This document shows positions 3,143 to 38,862 of a stretch of DNA of 64,000 bases, piece by piece. Below the pieces are notes generated by a model. That model was not told the DNA's origin, did not search any database, and saw only the letters and a list, made by a program, of their open reading frames with translations. Every line of letters starts with the position of its first letter. Position 1 is the first letter of the stretch. The translations under genes were made by a program, and so were the position numbers. Source of the DNA: a phage; sequence record OZ346201.1; one strand, written 5' to 3'.

Positions 3143-3532
3143 ATGATTACCGCTCAATATTCTGATATCGTGCTCGGCAAAGTTGATTCTAGCGATGCTG
3201 GCTACAATTTTAAAGAGATGGAAATTACACTGACAAAGCACCACCATGCGGGTACTGTTGTAACAAAAACTGGCACTATCGCTAACGATGATGGCTCAGA
3301 CGTTTATGGTGTTCTTGTAGACCGAGCTTTGGTAAAAGATGCAGGAAAAGTTCATCTTGCTGAGCCTCTGCAAACAGGTCAGAAATATAAACTAGTTGTC
3401 GCAGTTCACGGTGTTACCTTTGCAAAAGATAAGCTGCTGGGGTCTAACGGTGAAGCAGCTAAGCAGGATGTTCTTGAAAAGCTGGAAGCTCTGGGTAACA
3501 AAGTTCACGTCCAGACTCTTGGTGAAGAGTAA
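3143..3532 (+). CDS. head decoration protein (lambda gpD-like)
   Basis: 129 aa, RBS GGGGGAA; immediately upstream of the major capsid gene, as in the lambda D-E arrangement. Confidence 0.45.
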   Translation: MITAQYSDIVLGKVDSSDAGYNFKEMEITLTKHHHAGTVVTKTGTIANDDGSDVYGVLVDRALVKDAGKVHLAEPLQTGQKYKLVVAVHGVTFAKDKLLGSNGEAAKQDVLEKLEALGNKVHVQTLGEE

Positions 3533-3580
3533 GTCCTAAATTGTTCGGGAAAATATTTAAGTTTTACTTTGGAGAAATAA

Positions 3581-4588
3581 ATGATTACTCGTAAAGATGA
3601 ATTTGGCATTGTTGATTTAGGTGCTACTCTGGACCTTGTTCCACGTCAATTCCGCCTGATTACTGGTATGGATCTGTTCGAAACCCGTCTCGGCACCTCA
3701 ACAATTGCTCAGATTGAGCGTGTTGATGAAGTTGTAACCGACATTCCGGCACGCCGTCGTGGTGGTGAGCGTAACTACGTTGGTAGTGAACGTGCTCAGG
3801 TTAAAAACCTGAACATCCCGTTCTTCCCTCTGGACAAAGGCATCACTGCCGCAGATGTTCAGAACTTCCGTCGTTACTTCACTCCTGATGCTCCGAAAAC
3901 TGTTCAGGACGTAGTAACCCGCGTTGTTCGCCGTATCCGTGTTTCTCATGAAGCACTGCGTGAGAAAGCGCTGTTCCAGGCTATTCTGGGTAAATCCTAT
4001 GCACCTGGTGACACCACCTGTCAGTATAATTACTACACTCTGTGGGGTGTGTCTCAGAAGTCTGTTGAGATCGACCCTGCAAAAGCAGATCAGGATCCTA
4101 TGGAGGTTCTGGAAGAAGCTCGTCTGCACATCGCACTGCAAGCTGGTGATAACGCAGCTGGCTATCGCATTGTAGCTCTGTGCTCACCGGAGTTCTTCAG
4201 TGCTGTTACTCATCACCCGCTGGTAGAACTGGCATACACCTATTACGGCTCTGCTCAGGAACCTCTGCGTCGCCGTCTGGGTGCTGGCGGTCAAGACAGC
4301 GTATACCGTGTGTTTGAGCATAAAGGTATCACCTTTATCGAAGATATCTCTGGCAATATTCCTAAGAAAGAAGCTCGCATTCTGCCGATGGGTATTGATC
4401 AGATGTTCCAGCTGCACTTTGCTCCGGCAGACGATGTTAACGAAGCAAACACTCCAGCACAGGAACTGTACATGTGGTATAAACACTCTGCATACCTGCG
4501 TGAAGAGAAGATTGAATCTGAAACTTCCATGCTGGCAGTTAACACCCGTCCAGAGCTGGTTGTTAAAGCAACTCTGAAAGGTGAATAA
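3581..4588 (+). CDS. major capsid protein (lambda gpE-like family)
   Basis: 335 aa, strong RBS GGAGAA, followed by a terminator; size and position match gpE-type capsid proteins. Confidence 0.65.
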   Translation: MITRKDEFGIVDLGATLDLVPRQFRLITGMDLFETRLGTSTIAQIERVDEVVTDIPARRRGGERNYVGSERAQVKNLNIPFFPLDKGITAADVQNFRRYFTPDAPKTVQDVVTRVVRRIRVSHEALREKALFQAILGKSYAPGDTTCQYNYYTLWGVSQKSVEIDPAKADQDPMEVLEEARLHIALQAGDNAAGYRIVALCSPEFFSAVTHHPLVELAYTYYGSAQEPLRRRLGAGGQDSVYRVFEHKGITFIEDISGNIPKKEARILPMGIDQMFQLHFAPADDVNEANTPAQELYMWYKHSAYLREEKIESETSMLAVNTRPELVVKATLKGE

Positions 4589-4610
4589 TCATGAAGGTGA
4601 TTCATCCCAT

Positions 4611-4648
4611 ATGGGGAGGGGGTTCTTCCCCTTTCCCCTTTTTATTTA
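4611..4648 (+). terminator. intrinsic terminator after major capsid gene
   Basis: GC-rich hairpin GGGGAGGGGG-TTCTT-CCCCTTTCCCC followed by a T-run. Confidence 0.4.
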
Positions 4649-4671
4649 TTAGGGTTTAACAGGAGTGTCCC

Positions 4672-5517
4672 GTGAAGAGAGCCGTATATCCAGTTGAGTA
4701 TGATCCTCTATTAAGAGTTTTCAACAATCAGTTAAGTTTTTATCAATTTTTAGCACAATATAATCCAGAAATCAATGTTGGTTTATCAGCCCTGCTGCCA
4801 CCAACAGAGTTCGTTATTGGCAGTGTTCACTATCCATGCAGAACGATTGTAGACTTCTTCGAGAAGATTGCAAAACACACAGGCCTGCCAATTGATACTG
4901 GTATTTCAACTATCCGTATGGGTGTTATTCTTCTGTTCTTCACAGAGAACCTTGATGAAAGCACTTTAACACTGCAAAGCGGGGATGTCAATATTACACT
5001 CACTCCGTCAGTGTTTAAAGAGGTAGATGCTGCTTTCAAAGTTTCCGTGGCAGAGGGCCATCTGTGGGACCCTGAAGGTATGCCTAAAAAAGTGACCATA
5101 AACGATGAGCAATGCAACATTGTTTATGAAGAAGATACCCAAACTTTCACCATCGAGTGGCCTAAGAAACGTTCTCAGGTTGTAAATCTTGGGCTGGTTT
5201 CTACAGTAGCTCCACTGCCTGAACCAGAGCCGGAGCCACCTGTAGGTCCTACTGAACCAGGTGGTGGCGGTGAAGAATCCCCAGATCCGGCTGCACCGGG
5301 AGGCACTGAGCAGGATCCTGAACAGGCACAAGAATCAAGATCTTCTCGCAGTGATGTTGATGCCATACTGCAGCAGGCCGCAGCTCTTAACAACGAAGAT
5401 GACAAAAGTGGTTCAAAAGATGCACTCCAAACCTTCGCCAAAGAGCACGGTGTTATCTTAAGTAAGGCAAAAACTTTCCAAAATATGATGAAAGATTTTG
5501 AGGCTGCACTGGCATAA
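4672..5517 (+). CDS. hypothetical virion protein with Pro/Glu-rich linker
   Basis: 281 aa, GTG start after AGGAG; internal low-complexity PEPEPEPPVGPTEPGGGGEE linker; in head module. Confidence 0.4.
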   Translation: MKRAVYPVEYDPLLRVFNNQLSFYQFLAQYNPEINVGLSALLPPTEFVIGSVHYPCRTIVDFFEKIAKHTGLPIDTGISTIRMGVILLFFTENLDESTLTLQSGDVNITLTPSVFKEVDAAFKVSVAEGHLWDPEGMPKKVTINDEQCNIVYEEDTQTFTIEWPKKRSQVVNLGLVSTVAPLPEPEPEPPVGPTEPGGGGEESPDPAAPGGTEQDPEQAQESRSSRSDVDAILQQAAALNNEDDKSGSKDALQTFAKEHGVILSKAKTFQNMMKDFEAALA

Positions 5518-29395: not shown

Positions 29396-29424
29396 TTGAC
29401 TATTGTTACAAAATTTGGTAAAAT
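29396..29424 (+). promoter_or_regulatory. sigma70-like promoter TTGACT-N17-TAAAAT
   Basis: -35 TTGACT, 17-nt spacer, -10 TAAAAT within GGTAAAATAC. Confidence 0.5.
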
Positions 29425-30959: not shown

Positions 30960-31646
30960 ATGGCAGAGATTAAGTCGGATGTTAACCACATCCACACTCT
31001 GCCAGATTTTGTTCAGGGAGGTCTTGACTACCTACCTGGAGATTTTCTGGCTGAGAAGGTTAATTTAGTCACATTCTTAACCGTATACCTTAAAAGGTTG
31101 GAGGATGTTGATAAGATGCTGGTAGGTTTGGCTGAAGGAAGATTGCTTAACAATGCCAGCGGAAGATACCTTGACGAAGTTGGTAATCAACTTGGTATTC
31201 TTAGGAATGGACTTTCAGATGCTGATTTTCGTGCCACACTAATTATTCAGCAGGCCGCAGCATCAAGGGGCGGGACTCGCGAAGATGTCATCTCCACCTT
31301 GCGACAATTGTTCGGAAGAGACAATTTCGATACGTGGAAAGGAGACAACTTCAGGTTTGACATAAATATTAGAAAAACTTGCTTTGACATATTGCAGTCT
31401 ATCGATCAGATCTTAGATATGCTACCATTGCCTTGTCATTTGCGTCTTACAGAATCGCAAGGGCAAGCTTTTGGTTTTGAAGGGGACTCTACAGCTCTGG
31501 GCTTCGGATCAGTGTGGGAAGAAAACCAATTCGGAGTTGGTGGGCTGGCTACTTTGCTATATGTTCCTGACGTAAGACCTGATTGGGACACCACAACCAT
31601 TTATTGTGAAAGTATTACAGTAAACGCAACTAGACAGGAGGGTTAA
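30960..31646 (+). CDS. putative baseplate/tail protein (P2 gpI-like position)
   Basis: 228 aa; follows the J-like wedge gene. Confidence 0.35.
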   Translation: MAEIKSDVNHIHTLPDFVQGGLDYLPGDFLAEKVNLVTFLTVYLKRLEDVDKMLVGLAEGRLLNNASGRYLDEVGNQLGILRNGLSDADFRATLIIQQAAASRGGTREDVISTLRQLFGRDNFDTWKGDNFRFDINIRKTCFDILQSIDQILDMLPLPCHLRLTESQGQAFGFEGDSTALGFGSVWEENQFGVGGLATLLYVPDVRPDWDTTTIYCESITVNATRQEG

Positions 31647-33718
31647 TGGCAACAGCTGTTTTTAAACCTTACCGTGATTACTCTACAATGGCTGCACAGT
31701 TTCATTACCGCACAGTTCAGGATACTGCCGTTCCTGGTAGAGATTATGATCATGTTGAGGGCGATGTAACTATCCCAGTTGGGGCAACCAGTATTGAGAT
31801 CCCAGTGGAAATTGTTGACAAATTACCCAACAGGTTGCCAAGAAGCTTCTTTATGGAGTTTTCATCAAAATCTCAAGGAGTGATGATTGGAACACAAAGG
31901 GCGAAATGTACAATAGTTTCAGATGAGAATCTTGACAGGATATCTTGGGATACTGTTGAGGAGAGAATGTTTCACCCAAGATATTGGGTTACAACCACTC
32001 AGCAGACTGAAAGTACCTGTATTGTTGCAGATAACAACTGTTGTATTAACCGTTTAGTGTCAAGAACATATGGAGGTATGGCTGGGTGCATTTGGGAAAC
32101 AGTTGACAAGTATGACCATTTCGGTATTGGGTTTGATGATCACTATGAGATGAGAAACACCAAGCTTTGGTTCAGAATGTCAATAACCAACGCCAGCAAC
32201 TTCTCCACTCCTGAAAAGATGATTATGACTGTAGACCTTGTTGATGGCACAATCATCTATGTTCCTTTAGCTCAATATGCTGTCAGCATCTCAGAGGATA
32301 AAAATGTTGCAGAAATTCATATTGATTTTGAGGACTGCGTCGGGATGGACCAGAACAACAACATGATGGGTGTTGATCCTCGGCAGGTGAGAAGGATTTT
32401 AATACCACTTATGCCTAAAGACTGGGTAAGTAATAGCACAGATCCAAGAACGGAAAATGTAGAGTGTGAGTTGCGCCTAGATCTGCTTCAGCCAGACACA
32501 GGCTGGAAAATGATGCAACTTAATAATATCCAGGTGAGAGAGCACGACGTTGGGATCTGCACCGCATATGACGATATGTGGAACGTGTCCCCTTTAAGGG
32601 TGTTGAACAATATCAAGCGTCTGGGCTATACCGGAACCATAAACCATTATGTTGGTATGAGTCATTATTATGACTACACATGGTCAGGAACCCAATGGTC
32701 TATAAACAGAACAGGAGCGCTAAACGCTGCAGCTTATAAATGGCATGATGATTTTATGTACAATGCCAAACGACATAACTTCGACGTTATGCAATCTGTA
32801 AGTTTTGAGCTTTTCAGCGATGCCTGCCCGTTGGAATGGACCCAAAGAGACTGGAACGATAACTACGCTAAAACAGGGTATACACCTTGTAGCTACCTCC
32901 TGTCTCCAACCATTGAAGAGGGTATGAATTTCCTTACTGCAGTATTTAAGAATTTTGCATCAGCCGCTATGAGAAACAACCTGCCAGTGATTATGCAGGT
33001 TGGTGAACCGTGGTGGTGGTACAATACCGATACTCGTAGACCTTGTATTTATGATTACCCTACAAAACAGGCGTTTTATGATGAGACAGGCGAGTATGCA
33101 TTAGATATTGGGACTATTGACGATCCTAAAACTGGCGGTGTTTACGATAAGTATGTAGCATTTTGTCGTGGTAAGCTTGGCGCTCGTATTGCGGCTATTT
33201 CAAAGGCAATAAAGGCACACGCTGCATCAGCTCAGATGACAGCTCTGCTGTTTTTCCCAACCATTATGGAAACCGAGCTTACGCAAAAGCTTAACCTTGC
33301 TGACCAATATAAAAAGGAAGCAGGTGCTCTTGATTTCTTCTGCACCGAGTGCTACGATTGGGTGATGCAGGGAGGTATTGAAAAGGCAAAAGAGTCTGTA
33401 AACATACCTATCGTTAAGTTAGGTTGGCAACCGTCTGAAATACAATACCTTGCAGGGTTCGTTCCTAGTAAAGAGCTTGCTCCGGTATATGGTTACGACC
33501 CAACCAGGAATTACCAAGAATTTTTATGGAGATGTATTTGCGGAAACATGGCAACTATAGAGTATAGATATCCTGAGGTAAAACAGTATGTGTGGGCATA
33601 CCCGCAAGTAATGTCTGACAGCATCACTGTTACCGCTAGAGATTCTACCGTGCTTCATATGGGGCAGGTTGCTCTGAAAGGGTATGTAGAAGATGTTGTC
33701 CCGCCAGACTTCTCATAA
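31646..33718 (+). CDS. large structural protein with N-terminal Calx-beta-like segment
   Basis: 690 aa; N-terminal segment RDYDHVEGDVTIPVGATSIEIPVEIVDK resembles a Calx-beta fold motif; Trp/Tyr-rich C-terminal part. Confidence 0.4.
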   Translation: MATAVFKPYRDYSTMAAQFHYRTVQDTAVPGRDYDHVEGDVTIPVGATSIEIPVEIVDKLPNRLPRSFFMEFSSKSQGVMIGTQRAKCTIVSDENLDRISWDTVEERMFHPRYWVTTTQQTESTCIVADNNCCINRLVSRTYGGMAGCIWETVDKYDHFGIGFDDHYEMRNTKLWFRMSITNASNFSTPEKMIMTVDLVDGTIIYVPLAQYAVSISEDKNVAEIHIDFEDCVGMDQNNNMMGVDPRQVRRILIPLMPKDWVSNSTDPRTENVECELRLDLLQPDTGWKMMQLNNIQVREHDVGICTAYDDMWNVSPLRVLNNIKRLGYTGTINHYVGMSHYYDYTWSGTQWSINRTGALNAAAYKWHDDFMYNAKRHNFDVMQSVSFELFSDACPLEWTQRDWNDNYAKTGYTPCSYLLSPTIEEGMNFLTAVFKNFASAAMRNNLPVIMQVGEPWWWYNTDTRRPCIYDYPTKQAFYDETGEYALDIGTIDDPKTGGVYDKYVAFCRGKLGARIAAISKAIKAHAASAQMTALLFFPTIMETELTQKLNLADQYKKEAGALDFFCTECYDWVMQGGIEKAKESVNIPIVKLGWQPSEIQYLAGFVPSKELAPVYGYDPTRNYQEFLWRCICGNMATIEYRYPEVKQYVWAYPQVMSDSITVTARDSTVLHMGQVALKGYVEDVVPPDFS

Positions 33719-33730
33719 TCAGGAGATAAA

Positions 33731-34771
33731 ATGTCAAAACCTAGTTTTCCATTAGAGATTTGGGCAGAGGAGGATCAGGTTCTGCCTAACACCCACAGAC
33801 AGAACAGGCTACGCCCGATTGATGATTTGTGGAGAAAAGGTTGGGATCTTGGTCAAAAGCCCTCATGTGAAGAACTTAACTATATTTTCAATATGCTCGG
33901 GACTTGGGCAAAATACATCGCTGACGAGCAGATCCCCGCTCAAGAAGGCCGTTATCTGGTACGTGATAATAACTTGAGTGATCTTTTGAACATTCCTGTT
34001 GCCCGTAGAAACCTTGGGATTATTACTAAGGAAGAGGCAGACGCCAGGTATGTAAAAGTTACAGGTGATACAATGACAGGCCCATTGGGTTTGCAACGTA
34101 TCAACTTTAAAGCTGCCGAGTCAGATAAGGCTTGGATAGAGACAACTATTGGCCCAGATAAGACAACTCTCGACTTTGGGTTAAGTGATAATACCGGGTC
34201 GTTTGATGATGGTGGTACATCTACAGTGGATGCGTTCCGTTGGAGATTCCAGCCAACTCAGCCGGATATTAATCCAGAGTTCACTTTGATGTACCTTAAC
34301 GCGATCACGGCTAACCGTGCGCTGTTGAAAGTGGTAGGCAATGTTGAAGTTGTCGATAACATGAGGTGCAATAACCTTACTATCAGCAATACAGCGACAT
34401 TCACCAACTGTAATGTGGCTAGTCAGTTGACGGCTGGGTCAGTGTATGTTAATGGTGGTGCAAGTTGTGACAGTATGGTTGTAAGAAGCCAGCACTGTGT
34501 TGTCGGTAACAGAAATGTGGTTCGCTCTGTGAACGGAGTGACGGCTAACGGTAACGGTGATGTAACGATCACTATCCCGCAGACAGGTGTGCAAGACATC
34601 AGAATCGGTGCAAGACTTGTGGACGGAGTTTCTGAATCTCCAATCCGCAACGGCTACGTTGTCACAGGCTGGCATTTCGGTGACAAAAAAGAGATGCGTG
34701 GTTCAACCTACTGGGCAGGACCTTTACAAAAACTTGTAAATGGTCAATGGATCACTGTTAATTATGCATAG
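33731..34771 (+). CDS. tail fibre protein (cassette A)
   Basis: 346 aa; N- and C-termini paralogous to the 35786..36829 product (C-terminal ...QKLVNGQWIT(V/I)xYA); followed by a Tfa-like gene. Confidence 0.55.
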   Translation: MSKPSFPLEIWAEEDQVLPNTHRQNRLRPIDDLWRKGWDLGQKPSCEELNYIFNMLGTWAKYIADEQIPAQEGRYLVRDNNLSDLLNIPVARRNLGIITKEEADARYVKVTGDTMTGPLGLQRINFKAAESDKAWIETTIGPDKTTLDFGLSDNTGSFDDGGTSTVDAFRWRFQPTQPDINPEFTLMYLNAITANRALLKVVGNVEVVDNMRCNNLTISNTATFTNCNVASQLTAGSVYVNGGASCDSMVVRSQHCVVGNRNVVRSVNGVTANGNGDVTITIPQTGVQDIRIGARLVDGVSESPIRNGYVVTGWHFGDKKEMRGSTYWAGPLQKLVNGQWITVNYA

Positions 34772-34785
34772 ATCGGAGGACTAGC

Positions 34786-35370
34786 ATGAAAATACTTCAA
34801 GAGTTTAAACTTTACCAACCGGGATCTGGCGAATACCGCACCAACAAGGAAACCAAGGAGCTGACCCCTCAAGAGGTTGAGGATTACACAGCATACACTG
34901 GGTATTTTTTACGTAATGATGATGGCGATTGGTATGTGCAGTCACGAACATTACGACAAGAAAATCCGGGGTGTATCTTCCTACTTGTTGACGAGAAGGG
35001 AATTCTTAAGACATCTACAGAAGAACCTGATGCCTTATGGCCTGCTCCAGGTCTTCGTGTGGTTATCGCCAAAAAAGAAGAGGTACCAGAAAACATTATG
35101 CTTCACCACGACGCTTTGCGTTTAGTTGGTGATGAATTTGTCACAGACAATGAATTCTTTGTTCAACAGGCAGAGGGTGTCATAGAGACAGAACTTGCTT
35201 GGGCTACTGCTAGAATTGGTGCCTATCAAGACATGATTGACCTTGAATATGATCTTACTGATGACCAGAAACGTAACATCAGAGATTTGAAAATGTACAG
35301 GGTAAAACTTCTTGAAATAGATACATCTAAAGCCCCTGACATTTTCTTCCCGGAGCGACCTACCCTCTAA
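34786..35370 (+). CDS. tail fibre assembly protein (Tfa-like)
   Basis: 194 aa; C-terminus (...RNIRDLKMYRVKLLEIDTSKAPDIFFPERP) matches the conserved Tfa signature; immediately downstream of a fibre gene. Confidence 0.55.
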   Translation: MKILQEFKLYQPGSGEYRTNKETKELTPQEVEDYTAYTGYFLRNDDGDWYVQSRTLRQENPGCIFLLVDEKGILKTSTEEPDALWPAPGLRVVIAKKEEVPENIMLHHDALRLVGDEFVTDNEFFVQQAEGVIETELAWATARIGAYQDMIDLEYDLTDDQKRNIRDLKMYRVKLLEIDTSKAPDIFFPERPTL

Positions 35371-35381
35371 GAGGAGGTGTT

Positions 35382-35696
35382 GTGGAGTTGGATTTGGCGG
35401 CATTGTACGGTATCTGCATGGGTACCGTTGTCCCGATCTGTGTATGGGCTTTCAACCAGTGGCACACCAAATGGAAAGGCATTTCCAAGAGGTTGGATGA
35501 ACTGGAGAAAGACCTCATCTTAGTGAAAAACAGTATGGTTACAAAAGATAAACTTGATTCCGTTATCGAGACCCGGTTAAGTAAGCTAGAGGCCGATATT
35601 AACGACCTTAAGCAGGATGTCAGGACAGATGTCTCCGGTATCCGAGCTGATGTACAAAAGATTTTGCACATGCTCGTAGAGCATAGTAAAAGGTAA
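35382..35696 (+). CDS. membrane-anchored coiled-coil protein (possible spanin- or holin-associated)
   Basis: 104 aa, GTG start after GAGGAGG; one N-terminal hydrophobic helix (LYGICMGTVVPICVWAF) followed by a coiled-coil region. Confidence 0.35.
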   Translation: MELDLAALYGICMGTVVPICVWAFNQWHTKWKGISKRLDELEKDLILVKNSMVTKDKLDSVIETRLSKLEADINDLKQDVRTDVSGIRADVQKILHMLVEHSKR

Positions 35697-35726
35697 ACAA
35701 AGGTCAGAACGGAAAGGACTCTGTTC

Positions 35727-35755
35727 TTGCATTTTGTTCCCTAAAGTGTTAAAAT
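35727..35755 (+). promoter_or_regulatory. sigma70-like promoter TTGCAT-N17-TAAAAT
   Basis: -35 TTGCAT, 17-nt spacer, -10 TAAAAT (GTTAAAATAG). Confidence 0.4.
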
Positions 35756-35785
35756 AGTCCTAAGGAATTTTCTCAGGAGAACGTG

Positions 35786-36829
35786 ATGACTAAACCAGTT
35801 ATCCCTCTTGATATTTGGGCCAATCAGGATGTTGTGCTTGAAAATACGGGAGAGTTGAATAAGTCTCAACCAAAAAAAGAAGAGAGATTGAAAGGTTGGG
35901 ATATGACACAAAGAGTGGCATGTGAAGTTGTTAACTTTGAACTTCACATGCTTTCTGCGTGGTTGAAGCATTTAACAGAAGATGTTGTCCCAGGATGGGA
36001 TAATAGATTCTTAAGGGTCACTAATAATCTAGCAGACGTTCCAGACAAAGCTGCTGCACGTCAAGTTCTCAATGTATACTCACCTGAAGAAATGGACGAT
36101 CTATATGTTGACAAGTCTGGAGACATAATGACTCAGACTCAAACTTTAGGTCTTCAAAGAATCGAGTTTGCATCTGCGTCAACAGACAGTGCGGCAATAT
36201 ATACCACCATAACTCCAGACAAGACGACGATGGATTTCTGGATTATGGACAACATCGGTGGTGCTGACGGCACAGACCTTGATGATCCTTCTCACCAAAT
36301 AGATGGGTTCCGTTGGAGATTTCAACCTTCTGGTGGGCAGCCTGTGTTTTCAGCTATGAAGCTCAATGCTATAACTGCCAACCGTGCAAGACTGGCTATC
36401 CAAGGAAATCTTGAATGCAACGATGCAAAAAGTTCCTCTGCAAATGCCAATGCGGTCACGATACCAAGAGCCACTGTTAATGGACAACAATCCTGCGGAA
36501 GCGCTCAAATAGGTGGAAGAGTTGATTGTAACGATGAAACCGTCAGGGGCCAATATGCAACAGTTGGTGGAAGAAACGTGGTCCGCAGGGTAAATGGTAA
36601 CGGCGCAGACAGTAGTGGTAACCTTACTATTCCTATGCCTAGCAGAGGGGTTGATGATGTAAGGATAGCAAACCGTTTCAAAACCACCTACAGAGAGTCA
36701 AGAGTCTACCCTGGACATGTGATGTGCTCTGGTAACTACGCTTATAAACACCCTTATCAAGGTGATTACTGGACAGGTGCTATCCAAAAACTTGTAAATG
36801 GTCAATGGATCACTATATCTTATGCTTAA
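35786..36829 (+). CDS. tail fibre protein (cassette B, paralogue of cassette A)
   Basis: Track ORF starts at GTG 35783; ATG 35786 after AGGAGA. Shares N-terminal 65 aa and C-terminal 20 aa with cassette A, divergent centre. Confidence 0.55.
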   Translation: MTKPVIPLDIWANQDVVLENTGELNKSQPKKEERLKGWDMTQRVACEVVNFELHMLSAWLKHLTEDVVPGWDNRFLRVTNNLADVPDKAAARQVLNVYSPEEMDDLYVDKSGDIMTQTQTLGLQRIEFASASTDSAAIYTTITPDKTTMDFWIMDNIGGADGTDLDDPSHQIDGFRWRFQPSGGQPVFSAMKLNAITANRARLAIQGNLECNDAKSSSANANAVTIPRATVNGQQSCGSAQIGGRVDCNDETVRGQYATVGGRNVVRRVNGNGADSSGNLTIPMPSRGVDDVRIANRFKTTYRESRVYPGHVMCSGNYAYKHPYQGDYWTGAIQKLVNGQWITISYA

Positions 36830-36840
36830 AAAGAGGGTAA

Positions 36841-37107
36841 ATGAAACTAACTCAGTTTTTATGGGGACTGGTTGCGGCATCTGATGACCCTACGAAAGTA
36901 TCCCAAACTAAGCTATGGTCGAACATAGGCATGGCGGTGATGACTGGGGTGTTTATTCATATGGGGTATAATGATACGCTTCCTGAATGGTATGCGTGGA
37001 TATACGCGCCTTCAGTAGCTTGCCCCCAGCTTATTAGCAAATTCATCTCGCTCCGGTGGGGTTGCCAGCACCCTGACCACGTTAAAAACGAAGAGCAAAA
37101 AGCTTAA
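36841..37107 (+). CDS. small hydrophobic protein (holin-like candidate)
   Basis: 88 aa with two hydrophobic stretches and a charged C-terminus (HVKNEEQKA); RBS AGAGGG. Confidence 0.3.
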   Translation: MKLTQFLWGLVAASDDPTKVSQTKLWSNIGMAVMTGVFIHMGYNDTLPEWYAWIYAPSVACPQLISKFISLRWGCQHPDHVKNEEQKA

Positions 37108-37116
37108 GGAGAAATC

Positions 37117-38862
37117 ATGGCGCAAGACATGACAAGCTTTGAGCAGGCGGTAGATCAAGTAATTGTTGATTCTGAACGTTTGCACCTGATTGTCAACGGT
37201 AACGCTGTGGATGAAGTTGTCGTAGAGGATGGGACCACCATCCCTACGGTACGAAAAGCCATGCTTGACACCCTTTATTTTAAAACGCCACCGATCCCTT
37301 GGGCGTATGGTGCATCCACAACAGTTTTTAACCAGCTGTACGAGTTTAAAGGGGACACAGGCCCTCAGTGGTGGTACGCTCCCGCAGCATCAAAATCTAA
37401 CCCGGTTAGAATGCCAGCAGATCCTTCACAATCTCCAAACTGGAGATTATATACCGATTCTGCAGTAATGGCAAAATACTACGCAAAACTTAACAGTCCG
37501 AGGTTCGAAGGTGACCCGCGAGTACCTACGCCTCCAATGGACGACAAATCCGAGTCTATAGCAAACACAGAGTTTGTTGTTGACTATGTGGATAGCATAT
37601 TTGAAGCCATGGAGGGAATGAAAGTTACTGTAGGGTCTTTGGTGGTAAAAGGTCTTACAGAACTTGCTAACACTATAGTTGGTGGCACACTCACCTTACA
37701 TGGGCCTGTTAATGGAGCAGATTCTACTGCACGCTTCAGGAACCTAATCCTCACGGCAAATACTTCTACACTTACTTTTGCGTGGAGTGATCCTAAGCAT
37801 GCAGACTGGAGAAGCACAGAGCTGCAACCTCATGAAGTGTCCACCCACAGGGTTATAGCTGACACTATAACTTCTGGGAAACCAGTGGCTAATAATAACG
37901 ATGTGCATTTTGATGGTCTAGGTAATAACTTTTTTGACTACGTGTACATTCGTGGTAATGCCATGAAGGCAGCAACCGAACCGACATTGCAGGTAGATGG
38001 AACCACCAGGGTTAAGAACCTTGAGGTGACAGGCACTGTTACAGGGATAACATACTCTGTCGATGGCACCATGATCTACCCTAGCTATATTGAAAGCACG
38101 GGTGATGCATTGATAAATGGCGATTTGGAGGTTGGCGGGTCTGTAGTTATTCGAGGTACAGCCTCTATCCAAAATATAGCTCTGAATACTCTAAGAGTCA
38201 ATGAGCGTGCAACTTTTGAAGGAGAAGGGCTTACAGCCAATAAAGGTACAATTACCGAGCTGACCACCACCACTTTAACTGCAACAACTGCAAACTCTGA
38301 AAACTGCAACATTACCAGAAACTTGCAGGTAAATGGAGATGTTAGTTTAAACGCCGCAGGGACTGGCACCACCTACCTTCACAATCTTGAAATATCCGGC
38401 ACAGTGACCGGATGGCTGCCAGACTTCTCTAATGTCAACTTTGTCTGTAATGGCATTAACTCCAGTGGTAAGATAACCACCTCTCAAGAAATTGAGGCTG
38501 GTAAAACCATCACTGCCCCTACTTTCCACGCAGGAAAGGTAGATTTTGACTTAGAGGAGGTTGACGCGTCCAGTGGGACATGGACACCTAACGGGCAGGC
38601 CAGTATGTATGTTGTCCACGCTAAAGGGGATTTTACAATAGGTCAGTGGCCTGGGACATCAGCGGAAGATAAACCTTATCCATTCACTGCAGTTATCTAT
38701 GTCATTCAGGATGCTGTAGGTCACAACGTGACTTTGCACGATAAGTATGCTATCCTGTCGGCAACACCTGTTATTAACAACAGGGCTAACAGTGTTACCT
38801 TGCTGCAATTAACGTATTGTGGTGTTGGTGATATTGTAGACGTAGTAATTGCACAACGTTAA
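37117..38862 (+). CDS. tail fibre protein
   Basis: 581 aa, RBS AAGGAGA; Thr/Gly/Asn-rich beta-type repeats (LEVTGTVTGITYSVDGT..., TITELTTTTLTATTANSENCNIT...). Confidence 0.5.
   Translation: MAQDMTSFEQAVDQVIVDSERLHLIVNGNAVDEVVVEDGTTIPTVRKAMLDTLYFKTPPIPWAYGASTTVFNQLYEFKGDTGPQWWYAPAASKSNPVRMPADPSQSPNWRLYTDSAVMAKYYAKLNSPRFEGDPRVPTPPMDDKSESIANTEFVVDYVDSIFEAMEGMKVTVGSLVVKGLTELANTIVGGTLTLHGPVNGADSTARFRNLILTANTSTLTFAWSDPKHADWRSTELQPHEVSTHRVIADTITSGKPVANNNDVHFDGLGNNFFDYVYIRGNAMKAATEPTLQVDGTTRVKNLEVTGTVTGITYSVDGTMIYPSYIESTGDALINGDLEVGGSVVIRGTASIQNIALNTLRVNERATFEGEGLTANKGTITELTTTTLTATTANSENCNITRNLQVNGDVSLNAAGTGTTYLHNLEISGTVTGWLPDFSNVNFVCNGINSSGKITTSQEIEAGKTITAPTFHAGKVDFDLEEVDASSGTWTPNGQASMYVVHAKGDFTIGQWPGTSAEDKPYPFTAVIYVIQDAVGHNVTLHDKYAILSATPVINNRANSVTLLQLTYCGVGDIVDVVIAQR

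Follow-up and report, generated by a model that had tools for sequence, protein, structure and literature searches.

Two short tail fibre paralogues beside one chaperone gene in a Vequintavirus, with probable gene conversion between their 3' ends

A phage that carries two related tail fibre genes, identical to each other over a 30-nt stretch at their 3' ends, raises the question of whether the genes are alternative cassettes for receptor binding or two fibres of one particle, and of what has kept the shared stretch identical. We analyzed such a locus in a 64,000-nt stretch of phage DNA (sequence record OZ346201.1), hereafter the window. The whole window is a Vequintavirus sequence, 99.7% identical to BASEL phage AlexBoehm, whose annotation at this locus reads two short tail fibers and a chaperone. 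The locus corresponds to the rV5 gp30-gp33 short tail fibre locus (99-99.7% nucleotide identity, equal gene order and sizes), and gene order was collinear with the window over 5 kb in 112 of the 117 related genome records that span the full 5 kb. Its features are as follows.

33731..34771, + strand: short tail fibre paralogue A, 346 aa, rV5 gp33 orthologue (phrog_4465, E 2e-171)
34727..34756, + strand: copy 1 of the 30-nt tract, an exact repeat, coding for QKLVNGQWIT
34786..35370, + strand: tail fibre assembly chaperone, 194 aa, rV5 gp32 orthologue (phrog_136, E 2.4e-36)
35382..35696, + strand: 104-aa protein, rV5 gp31 (phrog_5345, E 1e-48)
35706..35727, + strand: terminator-like hairpin from a terminator scan, followed by invariant TTGCATTTT
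35747..35756, + strand: late-promoter-like motif TGTTAAAATA, 30 nt upstream of B
35786..36829, + strand: short tail fibre paralogue B, 347 aa, rV5 gp30 orthologue (phrog_4465, E 4.8e-166)
36785..36814, + strand: copy 2 of the 30-nt tract, an exact repeat
36841..37107, + strand: 88-aa membrane protein, rV5 gp29 (phrog_1322)
37117..38862, + strand: 581-aa lateral fibre protein, rV5 gp28, phiTE_241-like (phrog_4549 and AlexBoehm annotation)

Both fibre reading frames of the initial annotation were confirmed at 346 and 347 aa; for B, the ATG at 35786 is the preferred start, with AGGAG 6 nt upstream. The six locus proteins had no NCBIfam matches, and Pfam gave no match above its curated cut-off for A or B. 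The pair of paralogues, its chaperone and the dual-receptor idea are already known. Kropinski et al. (2013) reported 42.3% identity for the rV5 pair and detected gp30 and gp33 in virions, and mass spectrometry placed gp32, the chaperone, in the same virion proteome (PMC3606486). The presence of two paralogues and a chaperone with low allelic variation, as well as the idea that the fibre pair serves "two LPS chemotypes," had been published by 2013/2021 (PMC3606486, PMC8594841). The new point made here is probable gene conversion between the 3' ends of A and B; a regional conservation map, the replacement of a PF26221-family gene and a promoter-like motif before B are further additions.

The two proteins had been described as having conserved ends and a divergent, receptor-binding centre, and the regional map reversed this picture. 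Across 43% identity over the full length (E 7e-94), identity by A residues was 42% at 1-65, 33% at 66-110, 56% at 111-204, 33% at 205-283, 31% at 284-332, and 86% at 333-346. Apart from the short terminal segment, which holds the QKLVNGQWIT(V/I)xYA end that is indeed present in both proteins, the most conserved region is the centre (residues 111-204, 56%), and the N-terminal 65 aa (42%) do not stand out from the whole protein. Divergence lies in residues 205-283 and in the C-terminal tip (284-332).

Homology shows a three-part architecture, in which each fibre comprises an N-terminal joint of ~80-110 aa, a shaft, and a C-terminal tip of ~60 aa. The phiTE short tail fibre (PDB 9cuy), in which residues 3-92 are modelled on wedge 1, was matched by residues 1-108 of A (E 1.4e-19), by residues 1-83 of B (E 1.2e-9), and over its N-terminal joint (residues 1-82) by the family profile (domain E 1.2e-27). 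The joint is homologous to the part that docks on the baseplate wedge. With a gene directly downstream of wedge genes, the fibres fall among wedge-attached short fibres of the phiTE/phi92 type, which supports the earlier description of two intact tail fibre genes with a common baseplate-attachment type of N-terminus. At the near-invariant PIDDLW motif of the joint, B deviates in all three two-fibre clades: the motif is replaced by PKKEER in the window, PEKDLR in L022, and PAKEQQ in L020.

At the other end, the C-terminus of A matched residues 440-501 of Mu fibre protein S (5yvq, E 2e-6), and the family profile matched Mu S 438-503 (domain E 6.9e-8) and also 8ju3. Structure prediction of both fibres, proposed as a check in the initial annotation, gave weak AF2 monomer models (pLDDT 62.6 for A and 57.7 for B) that served as the basis of the Foldseek match only, and for both the sole significant match was 5yvq_A (E 2.5e-7 and 2.3e-6, respectively). 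The tip of the B model aligned to 8ju3 with an rmsd of 2.6 A over 62 columns. Being homologous to the Mu S tip, this segment would be the receptor-binding end and the site of Tfa-type chaperone action; the homology places receptor binding at the tip rather than in the centre. The predicted Tfa-like gene after A was verified: immediately downstream lies a Caudo_TAP chaperone (PF02413 at residues 121-192, E 8.5e-12), whereas the downstream neighbour of B is the 88-aa membrane protein. Sequence searches of the PDB with the chaperone returned no meaningful match and did not recover Mu U. As had been noted, it is the single chaperone gene at the locus, and it may serve both short tail fibres. The 104-aa protein (gp31) has an N-terminal transmembrane helix and a coiled coil, with only weak coiled-coil matches in Pfam, and its gene follows the chaperone gene in all relatives examined (Av-05, GAP31, Hena1, phi92-like phages, L020, and L022).

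The C-terminal tip of the fibres is homologous to that of Mu S (PDB 5yvq, 8ju3, 9ki1), with the terminal motif (P/A)xQKxxNGxWxx(V/I) in common, and just as S is paired with chaperone U, a Caudo_TAP-family chaperone stands directly downstream of A. Mu, however, relies on one S gene, and Gin-mediated inversion of the G segment exchanges its variable part to give S/U or S'/U', each version with its own chaperone, whereas here one chaperone gene accompanies two complete, co-oriented fibre genes whose N-terminal attachment domain is of the phiTE/phi92 rather than the Mu type. The phiTE short tail fibre (PDB 9cuy/9mjn), which docks on wedge protein 1 by a joint homologous to that of A and B, is a 554-aa protein that contains a coiled coil as well as Ig-like domains and has been linked to flagellotropism; fibre III of phi92 (gp147) has been described as Mu-like and attached under the wedge. 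In both phages the short fibre gene directly follows the wedge genes, as A does here, but each has one such fibre and the window has two. T4 gp12 has an analogous function, being a short baseplate fibre that binds the LPS core for irreversible adsorption, with gp57A as chaperone system where a Tfa is found here. HHpred matches of the rV5 fibres to gp12 were reported by Kropinski et al. (PMC3606486); for A and B, no gp12 structure appeared at E<=1 in PDB sequence and profile searches or among the Foldseek matches.

In relatives from Avunavirus, Seunavirus, Henunavirus, Klebsiella phages, and metagenomes, the short tail fibre and Tfa genes are followed by one gene of ~104-121 aa and one of ~152-157 aa, after which come a small membrane protein and the fibre. 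This synteny shows that B replaced the ancestral 157-aa membrane-protein gene (PF26221 family) of single-fibre relatives. No remnant of that gene was found in the window, the best tblastn match (E 0.046) lying elsewhere on the opposite strand. Synonymous divergence between A and B has reached saturation, and B would be an old duplicate; the A and B clades are sisters with 66% bootstrap, B having the longer branch, and given this support B may instead have been acquired from an unsampled relative.

The initial annotation placed a promoter-preceded small hydrophobic protein after B. The 88-aa membrane protein does adjoin B, but the promoter fell away: no sigma-70-like site was found on the + strand between 33500 and 37300, and the 11-nt gap between the two genes contains only an RBS. 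Nor is the 88-aa gene a B-specific partner, as single-fibre Av-05 and GAP31 have homologues (52-53% identical) at the corresponding place, making it an ancestral neighbour. Signals were instead seen upstream of B. Stem changes in the hairpin at 35706..35727 are compensatory at three of six pairs across four lineages, and the 10-nt late-promoter-like motif downstream of it is invariant in four lineages and matches the rV5 late-gene motif TggTAaAAtA (PMC3606486); the window holds eight occurrences of TGNTAAAATA, every one on the + strand, where 0.78 would be expected. Behind the conserved hairpin and this motif, B would head its own putative late transcription unit, in which the next gene would be that of the 581-aa lateral fibre, homologues of which carry PF26208/PF26209.

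The identity of the 30-nt stretch at 34727-34756 and 36785-36814 was confirmed, with 0 matches expected in shuffles. In simulations that kept both proteins unchanged and sampled codons anew from late-gene usage, the longest in-register match averaged 11.9 nt (95th percentile 17), giving P(>=30)=0.0002. Around the tract, similarity between the 3' ends extends to 62 nt at 84% identity. Complete identity is not genus-wide: other Vequintavirus genomes have one to four differences between their own A and B tracts. In L022-L024, a sister lineage, the two tracts are identical at 29 of 30 positions, and three synonymous differences from the window are common to both (P about 0.013). A third two-fibre lineage provides an unambiguous case, with a homogenised tip and a bounded B-to-A conversion tract of ~100 nt. 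Tip dN in the L020 clade is 0.20 between A' and B', as against 0.36 among A orthologues and 0.96 among B orthologues, and L032_A is identical to its own B' over stretches of 59 and 39 nt in which its orthologue L033_A has 13 differences. One boundary of this L032 tract, known from a metagenome assembly (UMGA01007364.1), falls inside the QKLVNGQWIT codons. In Vequintavirus sensu stricto, clustered A-to-B or B-to-A changes formed no clear tracts besides the 3' end; 40-50% of private changes there were toward the paralogue state, and these were scattered. From the covariation we infer that the 30-nt identity is the footprint of occasional ectopic gene conversion between paralogue 3' ends, and that the invariance of the encoded terminal strand QKLVNGQWIT has kept this footprint visible. 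We consider it likely that the locus as a whole encodes co-expressed paralogous short tail fibres with one chaperone and occasional 3'-end gene conversion. A reading of the repeat as part of a diversity-generating retroelement was rejected, the match being exact, in frame, and between paralogues, with no adenine-specific differences.

Two other accounts of the identical tract dispense with recombination or look beyond the protein. That protein constraint and codon preference on the invariant terminal strand produced it is unlikely, although the whole family keeps the peptide motif, Mu S and the phiTE short tail fibre among them, the core AATGGTCAATGG is common even to Av-05, and the one to four tract differences in several Vequintavirus genomes are independent. 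With the proteins fixed, the P value for at least 30 nt speaks against it, as do a background codon identity of just 0.32 at identical residues, the synonymous changes common to both L022-clade copies, and the L032 tract, which shows conversion operating at this very gene end. The identity at synonymous sites and its covariation would also suit a nucleotide-level functional element, for instance an RNA signal for the downstream gene kept equal in both mRNAs, and in both cases the next start codon does lie ~30-60 nt beyond the tract. We regard such an element as highly improbable, given that A' and B' of the L020 clade differ at 7 of 30 positions with tract codon identity of 2/9, at or below background, that YP-6 has four tract differences, one of them non-synonymous, and that the genes downstream are unlike, A being followed by the chaperone and B by a membrane protein.

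The exact direct repeat at both 3' ends, together with the movement of 3'-end sequence between copies in relatives, could also be taken to mean that A and B are alternative receptor-binding cassettes in which the repeat swaps the central segment, so that specificity is toggled or shuffled by the phage or its population. This is very doubtful. The genes are co-oriented on the + strand, with no inverted-repeat architecture of the invertase type: the only inverted pair at the locus is 20 nt long with 80% complementarity. With neither inverted repeats nor a rearranged genome in evidence, the locus is not a switchable cassette system and does not belong with the Mu G segment or the P1 C segment. 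Homology is one-sided, the longest matches on the 5' side being 12 and 15 nt, which leaves a swap of the centre without a second crossover site. Crossing over at the direct repeats would remove the chaperone and 104-aa genes along with most of B, a product absent from the 117 genomes. Moreover, the centre is the most conserved region, and what relatives have exchanged, on an evolutionary time scale, is the tip and the tract; the proposed role of the repeat as an exchange substrate survives in part as gene conversion of 3'-end sequence, not as cassette swapping. Finally, the rV5 virion is reported to contain the counterparts of A, B, and the chaperone (PMC3606486), which suggests that the particle carries both fibres at once and that nothing switches. 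The same virion data bear on whether B is superfluous or decaying, a duplicate that does nothing of its own, which we judge extremely unlikely. B has no chaperone gene of its own and evolves about twice as fast as A (37 vs 17 variable residues). Yet dN/dS is 0.04-0.07 for B (0.014-0.04 for A), indicating strong purifying selection on both; none of the genomes examined has a broken B, the tip is the part of B best conserved from clade to clade, and its own conserved promoter-like motif stands upstream. The initial annotation would have been refuted by a copy that is a remnant or absent from virions; the rV5 virion data and the purifying selection point to neither.

The LPS core region is the known terminal receptor of rV5-like phages, and terminal adsorption is attributed to the short fibres. 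Whole phages of the group depend on waaC/waaG (PMC8594841); this dependence and the homology to Mu S suggest that A and B would bind the LPS core. The tips in the window are 31% identical to each other, although each of them is highly conserved (for the B tip, window and L022 agree at 92% identity, dN 0.065). This fits two different LPS core ligands, and we infer that the A and B tips may bind different ones. Dual receptor specificity, suggested by the initial annotation and earlier proposed for rV5 gp30/gp33, is plausible here. It cannot explain the upkeep of two fibres in every lineage, however, because in the L020 clade both fibres have the same tip type.

A more tentative reading, which we hold to be possible rather than probable, is that B is defined by its joint and shaft, with a baseplate position or partner differing from that of A, while the tip is a semi-independent unit, copied again and again from one gene to the other by gene conversion and anchored on the terminal strand. 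If true, this would account for lineages whose two tips are different, as in the window and in L022, or alike, as in the L020 clade, and would amount to recombination-based tuning of the receptor specificities displayed per virion. The rV5-like phages are common, broad-host-range E. coli phages with uses in typing, biocontrol, and therapy cocktails. For host-range engineering, the useful points are that both fibres are selected for, that their tips are divergent, and that tip sequence is mobile between the genes: residues ~284-346 would be the module to swap, and the paralogue may overwrite engineered tips.

A 5-kb query around the two fiber genes found 117 matching phage records. In 112 of these the alignment covered 80% or more of the query, and the closest match was Escherichia phage AlexBoehm (Vequintavirus, BASEL collection) at 99.7% identity. 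The two short tail fiber ORFs of the initial annotation, here A and B, were present as described. The locus reads as follows, with AlexBoehm annotations and gp numbers from the type phage rV5 (all plus strand):

31646-33718, 690-aa gene, lateral tail fiber protein, gp34
33731-34771, A (346 aa), short tail fiber protein, gp33
34786-35370, 194-aa gene after A, tail fiber chaperone, gp32
35382-35696, 104-aa gene, hypothetical protein, gp31
35786-36829, B (347 aa), short tail fiber protein, gp30
36841-37107, 88-aa gene, hypothetical protein, gp29
after the 88-aa gene, 581-aa gene, lateral tail fiber protein with glycosidase domain, gp28

In Pfam, the 690-aa protein matches PF23845 (E = 4e-80) and PF23844, both domains of non-contractile tail sheath proteins, as well as Calx-beta; recent work has implicated this N4 gp65-like protein in NGR glycan binding. 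Across the locus, about 20 GenBank records named "Campylobacter phage" (MG0656xx), part of which carry the UNVERIFIED flag, share 98-99% identity with rV5-like phages of E. coli; their host assignment appears doubtful.

The pair was confirmed, though it was not new to this phage group. Kropinski et al. (2013) reported 42.3% identity between gp30 (347 aa) and gp33 of similar size, HHpred matches of both to T4 gp12, and gp30, gp32 and gp33 as virion proteins in whole-phage proteomics of rV5 (PMC3606486). Maffei et al. found no considerable allelic variation in the short-fiber paralogues and stated that these phages require the first outer-core LPS glucose because waaC and waaG mutants were resistant (PMC8594841). 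Since these papers cover both, the pair and the dual-receptor idea are known; our literature search did not find a paper separating the roles of the two short fibers.

Several details of the initial description were wrong. A and B had been presented as cassettes with conserved ends and a divergent centre; over their full length they are 43% identical (BLASTP), with the maximum in the centre and high identity again only in the last 14 residues.

Identity between A and B by region
Residues 1-65: 42% (overall 43%)
Residues 66-110: 33%
Residues 111-204: 56%
Residues 205-283: 33%
Residues 284-332: 31%
Last 14 residues: 86%

The receptor-binding part had likewise been placed in the centre, and homology points instead to the C-terminal tip. 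PHROG 4465 ("tail fiber protein") takes in both A (E = 2e-171) and B (E = 4.8e-166). Residues 1-108 of A and 1-83 of B match the phiTE short tail fiber in baseplate structure 9cuy (E = 1.4e-19 and 1.2e-9), where phiTE residues 3-92 form a trimeric joint docking on wedge protein 1 (PMC11972413). The A C-terminus matches residues 440-501 of Mu fiber protein S, and the A/B family profile matches Mu S 438-503, the S/S' chimera 8ju3 and, at both ends, the phiTE fiber. AlphaFold monomer models were weak overall (pLDDT 62.6 for A, 57.7 for B), as is expected for trimeric fibers; for each weak model the sole significant PDB fold match was nevertheless 5yvq_A, in which the Mu fiber is complexed with its chaperone (E = 2.5e-7 for A, 2.3e-6 for B), and 62 columns of the B tip aligned to 8ju3 with an rmsd of 2.6 A. 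The 194-aa chaperone has the conserved C-terminal Caudo_TAP domain (E = 8.5e-12); in this family the variable N-domain binds the fiber tip and the conserved C-terminal helices drive trimerization (PMC9608196). Together, the Mu S and phiTE matches and the chaperone biology indicate by homology that the C-terminal tip would bind the receptor. Phage phi92 has a single homologous fiber, gp147 ("fiber III"), with under-wedge attachment and described as Mu-like (PMC13450770). Salmonella myoviruses of ~52 kb that are unrelated to this group (SE13, SPLA2 and others; phage records H74-H80) have fiber tips 57-59% identical to that of A (residues 287-344, about 58 aa); the Mu-S-type tip thus moves between phage families too.

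Across Vequintavirus alleles, dN/dS was 0.014-0.04 for A and 0.04-0.07 for B, which had about twice as many variable residues (37 vs 17), clustered at positions 208-299. Between the window and the sister clade L022, the tip was the best-conserved part of B (92% amino acid identity, dN 0.065). Given this purifying selection, the conserved B tip and the presence of both proteins in the rV5 virion, A and B are both functional and neither is a remnant, which answers the refuting condition set with the initial annotation.

The 30-nt tract encoding QKLVNGQWIT was confirmed as exact and occurs only at 34727-34756 (A) and 36785-36814 (B). When both proteins were fixed and all codons redrawn from neighboring late-gene usage (5,000 trials), in-register nucleotide matches had a mean maximum length of 11.9 nt (95th percentile, 17), and a match of 30 nt arose in 0.02% of trials; the repeat thus exceeds what protein constraint yields. 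Its identity is not fixed within the genus: the copies agree at 30/30 positions in Pr121LW and A135 and differ at 1 in TP4, 2 in IMGVR279 and S127, and 4 in YP-6 and IMGVR988, through independent changes that include L to F in B only. A separate 15-nt exact match, AGAAGATGTTGTCCC, encodes EDVVP at 33688-33702 (C-terminal end of the 690-aa protein) and 35977-35991 (inside B); about 0.01 matches of this kind would be expected in 5 kb, and either chance or the trace of an old recombination junction could explain it.

Relatives suggested exchange between the 3' ends of the copies. In L022-L024, a sister clade from public assemblies (nucleotide identity to the window 75% for A, 70% for B), the tracts are 29/30 identical and both copies have the synonymous changes CTT>CTG, GTA>GTC and CAA>CAG, a coincidence of P ~0.013 if independent. 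A third clade, L020 with the independent assemblies L031-L033 (including one 136.8-kb contig), has the two-fiber layout of the window. The N-terminal two-thirds of its second copy, B', is B-type (~55% identical to window B, ~39% to A), and the last ~60 residues are A-type. The A' and B' tips are 76% identical with dN 0.20, below the dN across clades of A (0.36) and B (0.96) orthologues, which points to a tip coalescence younger than the clade split. Assembly collapse was ruled out as the cause of these like tips since they are just 71% identical in nucleotides. Up to position -150 from the stop, the A' gene of L032 is identical to its orthologue L033_A. Between -135 and -34 it is almost the same as the B' of its own genome, with exact matches of 59 and 39 nt; this segment, in which L033_A differs at 13 sites, brings two B-type residues. 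The gene reverts to A'-type exactly inside the QKLVNGQWIT codons, as would follow a recent conversion from B'.

A nucleotide-level element obliged to be identical in both copies could also account for the tract, but in the L020 clade it differs at 7/30 positions with codon identity of 2/9, arguing against this explanation. We instead read the ends as undergoing episodic ectopic gene conversion, for which the invariant terminal strand would serve as the homology anchor. No clustered conversion footprints were seen beyond the 3' tract in Vequintavirus sensu stricto. The proposal that the tract is a substrate for cassette exchange is borne out only in that 3'-end sequence moves between copies in relatives; the process appears to be evolutionary, not a programmed switch. 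A simple crossover between these direct repeats would remove the chaperone gene together with most of B; none of the 117 records shows such a deletion, and the locus has no inverted-repeat architecture. Elsewhere, in alignment columns 31-60 (window 33821-33910 vs 35876-35965), A and B of Vequintavirus sensu stricto have codon identity at identical residues of 7/8 to 9/9 (background ~0.32; L022 4/10, L020 2/7), and a second, older conversion tract may lie around the KGWD motif there.

Every Vequintavirus record contained two fiber matches and related genera one. In the single-fiber relatives examined (Av-05, 18-1-2, GAP31, GEC_vB_MG, NINP13076, Klebsiella phage P8734, Hena1 and two metagenomic lineages), the short tail fiber gene is followed in turn by those for Tfa, a TM/coiled-coil protein of ~104-121 aa, a polytopic membrane protein of ~152-157 aa (Pfam PF26221, Phage_phiTE_239), a membrane protein of 55-89 aa and a fiber of ~580 aa. 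B occupies the exact place of the 157-aa gene, of which no remnant was detectable in the window, and the 88-aa protein shares 52-53% identity with its counterparts in Av-05 and GAP31; from this position and these homologues, the 88-aa gene appears to be an ancestral neighbor and not a chaperone substitute. In a neighbor-joining tree the A and B clades are sisters (66% bootstrap) with a longer B branch, and synonymous sites are saturated between them, which fits B being an old duplicate that then evolved faster than A, although B may instead have been captured from an unsampled relative. The tail-fiber module of all Vequintavirinae relatives examined embeds small membrane proteins: the 104-aa TM and coiled-coil protein (window 35382-35696), the 157-aa polytopic PF26221 protein (5449-5922 in the relative L007) and the ~88-aa protein (window 36841-37107). 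Vequintavirus has lost the 157-aa member to B; members of the set may act in assembly, lysis or exclusion. The 88-aa homologue of the L020 clade has a C-terminal extension, and its ORF overlaps the B' end; the gene call in L020 gives 117 aa (3265-3618), and L033 has an ORF of 140 aa that begins at an alternative start further upstream (4537-4959).

The 88-aa gene had been described as promoter-preceded, a claim that did not hold: no sigma-70-like site was found on the plus strand in 33500-37300, and only 11 nt, with an RBS, separate B from this gene. The 104-aa and 157-aa genes overlap in relatives; the window instead has a 90-nt gap before B, with three elements kept across four lineages (flanking genes 70-90% identical):

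35706-35727, hairpin, stem changes compensatory at 3/6 pairs
gap before B, TTGCATTTT, invariant in the four lineages
35747-35756, TG(T/C)TAAAATA, invariant in the four lineages

The last matches TggTAaAAtA, the motif upstream of rV5 late genes (Kropinski et al., PMC3606486). The window has eight copies of TGNTAAAATA vs 0.78 expected, all on the plus strand (1698, 6224, 9745, 23767, 23905, 29416, 35747 and 61972). The copy at 29416 precedes the baseplate gene, and the window scan found none before A, the chaperone, the 104-aa gene or the 88-aa gene. TGNTAAAATA probably marks late transcription starts, and we infer two putative late units, one running from the baseplate through A, Tfa and the 104-aa gene and the other comprising B, the 88-aa gene and the following fibers.

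Overall, homology indicates that A and B are trimeric fibers that dock on the wedge through an N-terminal joint and end in a Mu-S-type tip, and that the locus has one Tfa-type chaperone gene. Both fibers would be displayed together on the particle, and the single chaperone would act on both through the terminal scaffold that they share, in which G286, V287, D289, R291, G308, V310, Q333, G338 and W340 are among the positions invariant in the family. The near-invariant joint motif PIDDLW is replaced in B-type proteins of all three clades (PKKEER, PEKDLR and PAKEQQ), suggesting that B may dock through a different interface. In the window lineage, the unlike, individually conserved tips may bind different LPS core-region features. 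Dual receptor specificity is not the sole reason for two fibers, because the L020 clade retains two with like tips. To what was known of this phage group, these data add, modestly, evidence for gene conversion at the 3' ends, the displacement of a PF26221-family gene and a separate promoter-like motif for B.
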